Positions 5,092 to 58,881 of a DNA stretch of 64,000 nucleotides are shown one piece after another (position 1 is the first letter of the stretch; the number at the start of each line of letters is the position of its first letter). The position numbers and the translations under genes are program-made. Origin of the DNA: Escherichia coli (GTDB lineage Bacteria > Pseudomonadota > Gammaproteobacteria > Enterobacterales > Enterobacteriaceae); NCBI RefSeq assembly GCF_965641715.1, contig NZ_OZ282453.1. One strand, 5' to 3'. Under the pieces are notes generated by a model. It did no database searches. It was not told the origin of the DNA and was given only the letters and a program-made list of their open reading frames with translations.

Positions 5092-5251
5092 AGTAAGTAC
5101 AAAACCTATTCGTTGTATGACAAATGTCACAATTCGATCATGGATAAATCGGGGCAAAAATGCAATGTTGCAGCACTATTTATCTCATATTATTTGAGGG
5201 TAATAACCTCACATTATCCCTGAATTAAAAGTGGTAATAATAAAACATTAT

Positions 5252-5266
5252 TTAAGAAATATCGCA
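5252..5266 (+). promoter_or_regulatory. Candidate RcsAB box of the colanic acid (cps) promoter
   Basis: ttaagaaatatcgca resembles the RcsAB box consensus TaAGaatatTCctA and sits about 490 bp upstream of the wza ATG in an AT-rich leader. Assigned by eye. Confidence 0.3.
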
Positions 5267-5532
5267 TGTGGAGACGCAATATTAAATATTGTCAACATAA
5301 AGAAACTCCTAAAAACCATATTGAATGACACTTAATATAATTCTTAAAAATAGCCAATTGCCGAATTGTTACCTTGCCTGCTATTCCGTTAGCTGTAACA
5401 CTTCCTCCTGCATTATTGGAGAGCCAATATTCAATTACCATAATGTCACCTTATATTCGGAAGTTAATTTCCGCAATAACCCTTTCTCATCAACGACTGT
5501 ATGTTGAGAGGGTTTTAAAAATTAAGCTAAAT

Positions 5533-5571
5533 CAGTGTATTGGTAGCTAAAAAGCCAGGGGCGGTAGCGTG
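5533..5571 (+). promoter_or_regulatory. JUMPStart element with ops site (RfaH-dependent antitermination) in the wza leader
   Basis: cagtgtattggtagctaaaaagccaggggcggtagcgtg contains the ops motif GGCGGTAGCGTG (5560-5571) on the coding strand, about 180 bp upstream of wza. Confidence 0.8.
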
Positions 5572-5749
5572 TCTGGATGCCTGAAAGACCAGTCTGAATT
5601 ATTCTGTCAATAGCCTGCGGATGAAATCAATTTTTTTAGGACTGATGCCAGTTAAATTTTTATTCAATTAACTGCAAGGTAAATGTGCATGGCGACATTG
5701 CTATTAATAGTGCACAGGATAATTACTCTGCCAAAGTGATAAATAAACA

Positions 5750-6889
5750 ATGATGAAATCCAAAATGAAATTGATGCCATTATTGGTGTCAGTAACCTTG
5801 ATAAGCGGTTGCACAGTACTTCCGGGCAGCAATATGTCGACGATGGGTAAAGACGTCATCAAACAGCAGGACGCTGATTTCGATCTCGACAAAATGGTGA
5901 ATGTTTATCCGTTGACCCCGCGCCTGATTGATCAATTACGTCCACGACCCAACGTAGCGCGCCCCAATATGACGCTGGAAAGTGAGATCGCGAATTACCA
6001 GTATCGCGTCGGGCCGGGGGACGTTCTGAATGTCACCGTCTGGGATCACCCGGAACTCACCACGCCAGCCGGTCAGTACCGCAGCTCCAGCGACACCGGC
6101 AACTGGGTACAGCCTGACGGCACTATGTTTTACCCGTATATCGGCAAGGTTCACGTAGTCGGGAAAACGCTCGCTGAAATCCGCAGTGATATTACCGGGC
6201 GCTTAGCGACGTACATCGCTGACCCGCAGGTGGACGTTAATATCGCCGCCTTCCGCTCGCAAAAAGCCTATATCTCCGGCCAGGTGAATAAATCCGGTCA
6301 ACAGGCGATCACCAACGTGCCACTGACCATTCTCGACGCCATCAACGCCGCAGGTGGCCTGACCGACACCGCTGACTGGCGCAACGTGGTGCTAACACAC
6401 AATGGTCGTGAAGAGCGTATTTCTTTGCAGGCGCTGATGCAAAACGGCGACCTCAACCAGAATCGACTGCTTTACCCCGGCGATATTCTCTACGTGCCGC
6501 GTAATGATGATCTGAAAGTATTTGTGATGGGTGAAGTGAAGAAACAGAGCACCCTGAAAATGGACTTTAGCGGCATGACCCTGACTGAAGCCCTGGGCAA
6601 TGCTGAAGGCATCGACATGACCACCTCCAACGCCAGCGGCATCTTTGTCATTCGTCCGCTGAAAGGCGAGGGCGGGCGTAACGGCAAGATTGCCAATATC
6701 TACCAGCTGGATATGTCCGATGCCACGTCGCTGGTGATGGCGACAGAATTCCGCCTGCAACCTTATGACGTGGTGTATGTCACCACCGCCCCGGTTTCCC
6801 GCTGGAACCGTCTGATCAATCAGTTGCTGCCAACTATTAGCGGTGTCCGTTACATGACGGATACAGCCAGCGACATTCATAACTGGTAA
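5750..6889 (+). CDS. wza: Colanic acid export outer-membrane lipoprotein Wza
   Basis: 379 aa; lipoprotein signal with lipobox LISGC; first gene of the wza-wzb-wzc unit. Confidence 0.95.
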
Positions 6890-9504: not shown

Positions 9505-9565
9505 GACGCCTGCATTCGCACCGCCCCGTAGGCCGGATAAGGCGCTCACGCCGCATCCGGCAAGC
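9505..9565. repeat. REP element(s) downstream of wzc
   Basis: gtaggccggataaggcgctcacgccgcatccggca palindromic REP consensus between wzc and wcaA. Confidence 0.55.
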
Positions 9566-18473: not shown

Positions 18474-19910
18474 ATGGCGCAGTCGAAACTCTATCCAGTT
18501 GTGATGGCAGGTGGCTCCGGTAGCCGCTTATGGCCGCTTTCCCGCGTACTTTACCCCAAGCAGTTTTTATGCCTGAAAGGCGATCTCACCATGCTGCAAA
18601 CCACCATCTGTCGCCTGAACGGCGTGGAGTGCGAAAGCCCGGTGGTGATTTGCAATGAGCAGCACCGCTTTATTGTCGCGGAACAGCTGCGTCAACTGAA
18701 CAAACTCACCGAGAACATTATTCTCGAACCGGCAGGGCGTAACACTGCACCTGCCATTGCACTGGCGGCGCTGGCGGCAAAACGTCATAGCCCGGAGAGC
18801 GACCCGTTAATGCTGGTATTGGCGGCGGATCATGTGATTGCCGATGAAGACGCGTTCCGTGCCGCCGTGCGTAATGCCATGCCGTATGCCGAAGCGGGCA
18901 AGCTGGTGACCTTTGGCATTGTGCCGGATCTACCAGAAACCGGTTATGGCTATATTCGTCGCGGTGAAGTGTCTGCGGGTGAGCAGGATACGGTGGCCTT
19001 TGAAGTGGCGCAGTTTGTCGAAAAACCGAATCTGGAAACCGCCCAGGCCTATGTGGCAAGCGGCGAATATTACTGGAACAGCGGCATGTTCCTGTTCCGC
19101 GCCGGACGCTATCTCGAAGAACTGAAAAAATATCGCCCGGATATTCTCGACGCCTGTGAAAAAGCGATGAGCGCCGTCGATCCGGATCTCGATTTTATTC
19201 GCGTGGATGAAGAAGCGTTTCTGGCCTGCCCGGAAGAGTCGGTGGATTACGCGGTCATGGAACGTACGGCAGATGCTGTTGTGGTGCCGATGGATGCGGG
19301 CTGGAGCGATGTCGGTTCCTGGTCTTCATTATGGGAGATTAGCGCCCACACCGCCGAGGGCAACGTTTGCCACGGCGATGTGATTAATCACAAAACTGAA
19401 AACAGCTATGTGTATGCCGAATCTGGCCTGGTCACCACCGTCGGGGTGAAAGATCTGGTAGTGGTGCAGACCAAAGATGCGGTGCTGATTGCCGACCGTA
19501 ACGCGGTGCAGGATGTGAAAAAAGTGGTCGAGCAGATCAAAGCCGATGGTCGCCATGAGCATCGGGTACATCGCGAAGTCTATCGCCCGTGGGGCAAATA
19601 TGACTCTATCGACGCGGGCGACCGCTACCAGGTGAAACGCATCACCGTGAAACCGGGCGAAGGCTTGTCGGTACAGATGCACCATCACCGCGCGGAACAC
19701 TGGGTGGTTGTCGCGGGAACGGCAAAAGTCACTATTGACGGTGATATCAAACTGCTTGGTGAAAACGAGTCGATTTATATTCCGCTGGGGGCGACGCACT
19801 GCCTGGAAAACCCGGGGAAAATTCCGCTCGATTTAATTGAAGTGCGCTCCGGCTCTTATCTCGAAGAGGATGATGTGGTGCGCTTCGCGGATCGCTACGG
19901 ACGGGTGTAA
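18474..19910 (+). CDS. cpsB: Mannose-1-phosphate guanylyltransferase (colanic acid copy)
   Basis: 478 aa; N-terminal nucleotidyltransferase motif [14 protein letters not shown] and C-terminal cupin/PMI-like domain; GC-rich. Confidence 0.95.
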
Positions 19911-20012
<102 letters not shown>

Positions 20013-20102
20013 AATGAATGCGAAACCGCGGTGTAAATAACGACAAAAACAAAATTGGCCGTTTCGGTCAGGGCCAACTATTGCCTGAAAAAGGGTAACG
20101 AT

Positions 20103-24439: not shown

Positions 24440-24711
<272 letters not shown>

Positions 24712-30002: not shown

Positions 30003-30041
30003 CAGTGCTCTGGTAGCTGTAAAGCCAGGGGCGGTAGCGTG
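30003..30041 (+). promoter_or_regulatory. JUMPStart element with ops site upstream of the O-antigen cluster
   Basis: cagtgctctggtagctgtaaagccaggggcggtagcgtg; ops GGCGGTAGCGTG at 30030-30041, about 75 bp upstream of the rmlB start. Confidence 0.8.
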
Positions 30042-56233: not shown

Positions 56234-56339
56234 TCGCGCAATAAAAAAGCCCCCGGAAGGTGATCTTCCGGGGGCTTTCTCATGCGTTCATGCACCACTG
56301 GAAGATCTGAATGTCTTCCAGCACACATCGCCTGAAAGA
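56234..56339 (-). promoter_or_regulatory. his operon attenuator including rho-independent terminator
   Basis: On the minus strand: GC-rich hairpin gcccccggaagatcaccttccgggggc followed by a T-run (plus-strand 56243-56275), located between hisL and hisG. Confidence 0.85.
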
Positions 56340-56390
56340 CTAGTCAGGATGATGGTGATGATGGTGGTGTTTAAATTGAACGCGTGTCAT
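56340..56390 (-). CDS. hisL: his operon leader peptide (MTRVQFKHHHHHHHPD)
   Basis: Reverse complement of 56340-56390 reads atgacacgcgttcaatttaaacaccaccatcatcaccatcatcctgactag: 16 codons with seven consecutive His codons. Confidence 0.95.
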   Translation of the reverse strand: MTRVQFKHHHHHHHPD

Positions 56391-58615: not shown

Positions 58616-58881
58616 AGAAAAATTATTATGACAAGCCTCTCATTCTCTTGTCATTTCCCCCCCATTTAGGCACAATGCGCCGCTGTCAAAAAATGACTAA
58701 AAACCGACGTTTCATCAGCGTCGGTTATTTTTTGCTTCAAACCAATCATTCATACCAAGAGGCCGGGCTTCGTACCGGATAGATATTTACTAAAAATCGA
58801 CAGTTGTTGTCGCTGAGGAATCCAAAAAAATGGGGCAATTTTTTGCTTACGCGACGGTTATCACCGTAAAGGAGAATGACC

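Follow-up and report, generated by a model that had tools for sequence, protein, structure and literature searches.

Sequence comparison confirmed that the leader of the colanic acid operon wza-wcaM carries a real, conserved and already known JUMPstart/ops element in the window, i.e., the whole 64-kb stretch of Escherichia coli DNA that was analysed. Positions 5533-5571 were, with high confidence, assigned as the JUMPstart of the wca/cps leader with a functional ops, at which the loading of RfaH lets the distal wca genes be expressed. The sequence, strand, position and conservation of the element were established in the present analysis, and the occupancy of wza-wcaM by RfaH was taken from the literature.

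The locus belonged to the E. coli chromosome, and the gene order in the window was asmA-yegH / wza…wcaM / galF / rfb…his. Of 5426 complete E. coli genomes, 4838 contained a match to the 801 bases around ops, mostly with an identity of at least 95%. The annotated neighbours of the element were yegH (TerC family, minus strand) and wza; downstream of wcaM, the order was galF, an O-antigen cluster of the rfbBDAC type and, at a greater distance, the his operon. The operon measured 22.9 kb from the wza start to the wcaM stop and 23.1 kb when counted from ops, for which the 24 kb given in a preliminary description of this DNA was a fair rounding. The intergenic region shared 98-99% identity with that of K-12 MG1655, and the JUMPstart and both Rcs-like boxes were identical; therefore, the K-12 literature was considered directly applicable. 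The GC content was 30-40% in the leader versus 50-59% in the flanks, and the low value of the leader fits H-NS binding. No Shine-Dalgarno-like purine run was present within 13 nt 5' of the wza ATG. The coordinates of the features are listed in Table 1.

Table 1. Features of the wza leader, the colanic acid operon and the second JUMPstart, in positions of the window.
Feature	Position	Strand	Sequence	Remarks
yegH-wza intergenic region	5092-5750			658 bp; ORF map
RcsAB-box candidate A	5253-5266	+	TAAGAAATATCGCA	Candidate of the preliminary description
Conserved block	5289-5314		TTGTCAA..AAATCCTAAAA	80-sequence profile
Second Rcs-like box B	5298-5311	+	TAAAGAAACTCCTA	45 bp downstream of box A; tentative
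Conserved block	5331-5349		CTTAATAT..TCTTAAAA	80-sequence profile
Same block as alternative or additional promoter-like element	5331-5349	+	CTTAATATAATTCTTAAAA	-10-like TAATAT at 5333-5338; columns 80-100% conserved in 80 sequences
Predicted sigma-70 promoter	5374-5402	+		-35 TTGCCT at 5374-5379; 17-nt spacer; -10 AACACT at 5397-5402
JUMPstart block	5533-5571	+	CAGTGTATTGGTAGCTAAAAAGCCAGGGGCGGTAGCGTG	Rfam RF01707; ops is its 3' third
ops	5560-5571	+ (non-template strand)	GGCGGTAGCGTG	Exact 12-nt match, 190 nt 5' of the wza ATG
Conserved block	5598-5612			80-sequence profile
Conserved block	5633-5654		TTTTTAGGACTGATGCCAGTTA	In the transcribed leader
Conserved block	5711-5745		GCACAGGATAATTACTCTGCCAAAGTGATAAATAA	In the transcribed leader
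Colanic acid operon wza-wcaM	5750-28676	+		20 genes (wza wzb wzc wcaA-F gmd fcl gmm wcaI cpsB cpsG wcaJ wzxC wcaK wcaL wcaM); ORFs compared with the RefSeq annotation of E. coli C
wza	5750-6889	+		ORF map
REP-type hairpin, wzc/wcaA gap	9532-9561	+		Fold and sequence; candidate elongation barrier
Two REP hairpins, cpsB/cpsG gap	19932-20012	+		Fold of 19905-20050
Two REP pairs, wzxC/wcaK gap	24488-24654	-		Rfam naRNA4 RF02564, 81.9 and 79.7 bits
Second JUMPstart/ops	30003-30041 (ops 30030-30041)	+		RF01707, 60 bits; exact ops

The preliminary description had reported a 12-nt ops upstream of wza within a JUMPstart-like block of 39 bp, and both were borne out. The 12-nt consensus GGCGGTAGnnTG was matched exactly by GGCGGTAGCGTG, and the block coincided exactly with a full-length match to Rfam RF01707 (57.3 bits, with a gathering score of 35 and E 1.6e-10, over model positions 1-38 of 38). 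The motif scan proposed there was run on the 64-kb window and detected the degenerate consensus GGCGGTAGNNTG at 5560 and 30030, i.e., two copies versus 0.06 expected, a number reached in none of 100 shuffles. Both copies were on the coding strand of polysaccharide operon leaders, the first before wza and the second before rfbB, and the first was co-oriented with the 20 plus-strand colanic acid genes. From ops biochemistry, the ops pause presumably occurs with the RNA 3' end at U11 (5570), G12 (5571) being the next base.

The second copy is the classic rfb JUMPstart heading the O-antigen cluster; it was located between galF and this cluster, 75 nt 5' of rfbB. The two JUMPstart copies were identical at 31 of 39 positions, and alignment revealed no recognisable similarity outside the block. 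The wza copy had one extra loop base (AGCTAAAAAGCC vs AGCTGTAAAGCC), and the distance from the end of ops to the first gene was 178 nt for wza versus 74 nt for rfbB.

Comparison with the RfaH-controlled operons (RF01707; rfb, rfaQ, hlyCABD, kps and tra leaders) showed that the wza copy had the identical 12-nt ops and the full-length 39-nt consensus, and that no structural feature set it apart. As in those operons, it was in an untranslated leader, on the non-template strand, and the operon that followed was long and directed the synthesis of a cell-surface polysaccharide. Unlike the other RfaH-controlled systems, the wza JUMPstart belongs to an operon that stays silent without Rcs induction. 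The leader represented the same locus as the wza-wcaM leaders of K-12 and CFT073 (Stout 1996; Hustmyer et al. 2022), with strain-level SNPs only outside the element, and the ops-wza distance of 190 nt equalled the published CFT073 value.

Hobbs & Reeves 1994 and Stout 1996 are the works referred to for a JUMPstart in the cps leader, and a 2023 paper citing both gives 'a JUMPStart-RfaH antitermination mechanism' as background knowledge on the wca operon. Hustmyer et al. 2022 listed GGCGGTAGCGTG, located 190 nt 5' of wza, among the RfaH-bound ops sites of CFT073. In that study, an RfaH ChIP-seq signal on wza-wcaM was obtained in CFT073 delta-hns delta-stpA and was absent in delta-rfaH, H-NS was bound at the wza leader, and wza-wcaM was described as a 'cryptic' RfaH locus that still needs a signal for initiation. 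When wild-type cells were grown in rich medium, wza was silent, with an RNAP signal below background (Hustmyer 2022), and K-12 ChIP-chip has been summarised as showing RfaH at only two operons. Because wza is silent in the wild type and only two RfaH operons are counted in K-12, RfaH action here is conditional on Rcs induction or H-NS loss.

The preliminary description had concluded that the operon depends on RfaH. The recruitment of RfaH has been published for this very sequence at this position, and this part stood; 'depends' was too strong, since it is occupancy that has been shown and one clade is without the element. It is better to state that wza-wcaM is loaded with RfaH when it is transcribed. 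The effect on the distal genes may be surmised here, and the magnitude of the dependence is reported elsewhere, by Navasa 2014 (FEBS Lett 588:922), a paper that Hustmyer et al. cite for the control of colanic acid by RfaH.

RfaH is described as being recruited by ops exposed on the non-template strand of the paused complex. Once bound, RfaH reduces both pausing and termination, keeps NusG away (which blunts Rho), recruits ribosomes and stays through the transcription unit, and it counteracts bridged H-NS-StpA filaments. In the wza-wcaM operon, transcription would begin upstream of the element at an Rcs-activated, H-NS-silenced promoter, and RNAP transcribing ops would pause, leaving the ops bases of the non-template strand exposed. 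RfaH would recognise this exposed strand, bind RNAP instead of NusG and be retained for the whole transcription unit, where it would counter pauses, termination by Rho and the obstruction caused by bridged H-NS filaments. It would probably also aid ribosome recruitment to wza, which is without a Shine-Dalgarno sequence, and the outcome would be the expression of wca genes as distant as 23 kb.

Conservation was investigated in Wza loci fetched by protein similarity, with one genome per species, which gave 80 loci, 79 of them with upstream sequence. Because retrieval was by Wza protein similarity, the locus set was unbiased toward JUMPstart. The genera sampled included Escherichia, Citrobacter, Salmonella, Enterobacter, Kosakonia, Lelliottia, Phytobacter, Franconibacter, Siccibacter, Atlantibacter, Trabulsiella, Cedecea, Buttiauxella, Superficieibacter and others. 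JUMPstart was present at the same place of the wza leader in 76 of 79 other species (RF01707 threshold or exact ops). The consensus GGCGGTAGNNTG was located about 190 nt before the wza ATG in 72 of the 79 loci with upstream sequence, and four more loci had, in the same position, ops variants differing by one or two bases (two loci with GGCGGTAGCGTA, one each with GGCGGTAGCATA and GACGGTAGCGTG), all of which passed the Rfam threshold. The GTA and CATA variants GGCGGTAGCGTA and GGCGGTAGCATA are RfaH-bound ops sites in CFT073 (Hustmyer 2022). The column profile of the 80 sequences showed that the ops columns were 80-100% conserved, with 9 of 12 columns at 95% or more, and that the 90 nt 5' of JUMPstart were only 10-40% conserved. 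A near-invariant ops at a fixed position with variable neighbours therefore indicated strong purifying selection on the element. In Citrobacter amalonaticus (L045), a leader insertion of about 120 nt was found downstream of ops, between the equivalents of 5677 and 5680, and increased the distance between ops and the wza ATG to about 308 nt.

The three loci without JUMPstart were those of Pseudescherichia vulneris, Escherichia sp. ESNIH1 and UBA7338 (L035, L036 and L039). Alignment showed that this P. vulneris clade had a clean deletion of about 33 nt, equivalent to 5540-5572 of the window, which removed TGGTAGC…GGCGGTAGCGTG, and an RF01707 search of the three loci detected no JUMPstart anywhere in them. 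This clade kept the promoter motif, the RcsAB-like box and the conserved leader blocks on either side of the deletion, and wza and wzb were intact; thus, the operon, or at least its start, can be maintained without the element. The deletion represents a natural ops-minus allele, and the lineage is a ready-made control for the importance of RfaH to the operon.

The barriers that RfaH would overcome were searched for inside the operon. Intrinsic-terminator-like sites numbered 24 versus 23.2 expected within the operon, with none in the plus-strand intergenic gaps, and intrinsic terminators as the target of read-through had no support. Since there was no terminator excess, read-through would have to concern Rho, H-NS, pausing or REP hairpins. 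All three sizeable intergenic gaps of the operon contained REP-type (REP/BIME) hairpins; the fold of 19905-20050 reached -61.6 kcal/mol (z -4.87), and 0 of 200 shuffles was as good. We infer that such hairpins could be barriers to transcription. The wzc-wcaA gap was 92 nt in the window and 177 nt in E. coli C. The Rfam 'algC RNA' RF02929 was matched at 20049-20098 (78.2 bits vs 33.8), after the REP pair and directly 5' of cpsG (phosphomannomutase). A simple scan from the wcaM stop to the second JUMPstart detected no plus-strand terminator-like site, so that the end of RfaH-modified wza transcription was not evident from the sequence.

The near-invariance of at least 12 nt, whose position is constant in 76 of 79 species and more than 15 genera, with neighbours that vary, also bears on the view that ops/JUMPstart is a conserved but functionally minor relic, with initiation (RcsAB, H-NS) governing expression and RfaH adding little. 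Such purifying selection speaks against a relic, as do the physical loading of RfaH at this place once transcription occurs and the paper of Navasa 2014, which by its title and its citations concerns RfaH control of colanic acid synthesis. The relic view draws on the silence of the locus unless initiation is unlocked ('cryptic' in the words of Hustmyer et al.), on a K-12 study with two RfaH operons only, on a whole clade that deleted the element without visible decay of wza or wzb, and on the lack of strong intrinsic terminators in the operon. Taken together, a relic was judged improbable, and a functional ops that loads RfaH was the preferred reading.

The position of the promoter was predicted from conserved signals upstream of the element. 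The spacer of the predicted sigma-70 promoter ended with TGT (extended -10; TGn and -10 at 5394-5402). The motif TTGCCT-17-(TGn)AACAAT was found in 76 of 80 sequences, and the spacer length was 17 nt in all 76. The hexamers were more than 95% conserved and the spacer was variable, which is the signature of a promoter. At position 5401 in the -10, C was found in 3 of 76 sequences (the window included) and A in 71; the -10 of the window, AACACT, is weaker than the AACAAT of the 71 others. The predicted start is near 5409, which would place ops at about +150 in a leader of about 340 nt; alternatively, if the block at 5331-5349 is the promoter, the start would be near 5345. Every conserved promoter-like element and Rcs-like box was located 150-300 nt upstream of ops, and since both predicted starts are upstream, ops would be inside the transcript either way. 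RfaH reaches DNA only via RNAP that has transcribed ops, and the ChIP signal on wza-wcaM implies transcription through ops (Hustmyer 2022). A Cappable-seq data set gave no start coordinate in the range of the wza leader, and the MG1655 RefSeq record had no promoter or binding features annotated in this region.

Two other candidates were rejected. A generic promoter scan gave 5417-5444 as its sole plus-strand site; such sites were fewer than in shuffles, the stretch was poorly conserved, and no weight was given to it. The palindrome TGTTAC/GTAACA at 5366-5400 was considered as a hairpin or operator; its left arm was not conserved in other genera, and the block is better read as the -35 and extended -10.

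The published 'wza promoter'-lacZ construct (PMC11112850; forward primer AAAAGCCAGGGGCGGTAGCG) covered 5552-5746 and began inside the JUMPstart. As it was without the promoter and Rcs boxes (5250-5402), its negative LsrR result may not concern the real promoter. For wza reporter fusions and the engineering of colanic acid production, the whole region of about 5250-5571 is needed. On the minus strand, at about 5292-5441, a 49-aa 'hypothetical protein' (WP_162829205.1) was annotated by RefSeq/PGAP across the wza promoter region of E. coli C, and no counterpart of this gene was annotated in K-12; it is probably a spurious gene call over regulatory DNA.

The candidate RcsAB box of the preliminary description, ttaagaaatatcgca, was present at 5252-5266 as described, and its distance of 267 nt to the JUMPstart block fits the 'about 280 bp' given for it. 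In the Rcs literature, the RcsAB box consensus (Wehland & Bernhard 2000) is quoted as TaAGaatatTCctA (TaAGaa / tatTCctA); the RcsB box is TN(G/A)GAN4TC(T/C)NA. Box A matched all six invariant positions of TaAGaatatTCctA (T1, A3, G4, T10, C11 and A14) and deviated from it at 5 of 8 lower-case positions, and its position 12 was G, where the RcsB box has T/C. The RcsAB core pattern occurred 17 times in the window versus 24 times expected from shuffles; since the pattern was not enriched, the match of box A alone is weak evidence. Box A was the sole core-pattern match in the intergenic region. Among the 76 loci, 54 had the core pattern at a distance of 119-122 nt 5' of the predicted -35, a count that rose to 56 with limits of 112-130 nt, and the usual form of the pattern was TAGGA(A/T)ATATCGCA. 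By sequence and spacing, box A is a good candidate for an RcsAB box conserved in position upstream of the predicted promoter. Wehland & Bernhard 2000 reportedly mutated the RcsAB box of wza.

In box B, the right half, ATCCTA, was nearly invariant and the left half was degenerate in E. coli. An invariant TTGTCAA (5289-5295) preceded the box, and 5289-5314 as a whole was more than 95% conserved. In Kosakonia, Atlantibacter and Siccibacter, box B agreed well with the RcsAB consensus, and the strict core was found in only 5 loci. Box B may be a second Rcs box; the rcsA promoter has been described with two boxes, which makes a two-box arrangement at wza plausible.

The model RF01707 draws a 5-bp stem (UUGGU/GCCAG), which the window sequence is able to form. 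Among 51 distinct JUMPstarts of wza leaders, stem pairs 2-5 were invariant and pair 1 varied on one side only (U:G, U:A, one C:G and one broken). No compensatory stem changes were found among these 51 sequences, and the invariance is uninformative rather than contrary. The local folds of both JUMPstart copies were unremarkable (z -1.3 and -1.5), and the MFE structures were without the Rfam stem. The data are thus silent on a JUMPstart hairpin, and the DNA-signal reading stands. That the block is mainly an RNA element, i.e., the Rfam JUMPstart hairpin acting post-transcription and not a DNA signal for RfaH, is very unlikely: Rfam does hold it as a cis-regulatory RNA model with a formable stem, and the 5' two-thirds of JUMPstart are conserved though ops alone is the known RfaH signal, but neither compensatory change nor folding points to such a stem, and the RfaH-ops DNA mechanism is experimentally established. 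A chance 12-mer in the intergenic region is the least credible explanation and already refuted, for although ops-like 12-mers also occur inside genes (34 of 42 matches in CFT073 were intragenic and not RfaH-bound; Hustmyer 2022), the two copies observed against 0.06 expected were both in coding-strand operon leaders, and the match covered the full 39-nt family with positional conservation across genera.

Between ops and the wza ATG, two kinds of RNA structure were tried and rejected. A hairpin right after ops was suggested by inspection, since self-complementary stems that differed among several genera seemed to follow it; the 36 nt after ops were folded in the 51 distinct sequences, and the mean z was +0.42, with one of 51 below -1.5. 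For a conserved RNA structure over the whole stretch, RNAalifold on 46 diverse sequences predicted 0 pairs. Judged from these alignments, the conservation between ops and the wza ATG is at the level of primary sequence.

The blocks at 5289-5314, 5331-5349, 5633-5654 and 5711-5745 were at least as invariant as JUMPstart across more than 15 genera, and TTTTTAGGACTGATGCCAGTTA and GCACAGGATAATTACTCTGCCAAAGTGATAAATAA were more invariant than the third positions of most wza N-terminal codons. The block at 5598-5612 likewise equalled JUMPstart in conservation. CsrA binding to the two invariant GGA-containing blocks was disfavoured, as a published EMSA with the wza 5'UTR was negative; despite this EMSA, delta-csrA raises wza transcripts up to about 50-fold. 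As a tentative suggestion, 5633-5654 and 5711-5745 could be binding sites through which a regulator or sRNA not described so far controls colanic acid synthesis after initiation. The cross-genus footprint serves as a map of the wza-leader bases under selection.

In the group 1 cps leader of E. coli K30 and Klebsiella, a JUMPstart is reportedly located upstream of wzi, and the passage of a stem-loop after wzc is said to be RfaH-dependent. The window was like the K30 group 1 capsule in that a homologous wza-wzb-wzc export module was preceded by JUMPstart. The hairpin after wzc is a stem-loop in the group 1 capsule, whereas in the window it was the REP hairpin at 9532-9561, a candidate attenuator. 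The expression of the group 1 capsule is RcsAB-independent, whereas colanic acid is strictly Rcs-activated. The present result is the re-identification of a textbook element; it adds nothing to the knowledge of colanic acid regulation, and its practical value is modest.

Two further RNA elements were detected in the window, both ordinary for this chromosomal region: the his operon leader at 56241-56364 on the minus strand (131.6 bits) and the sRNA STnc240 at 58661-58735 on the plus strand (68.2 bits).
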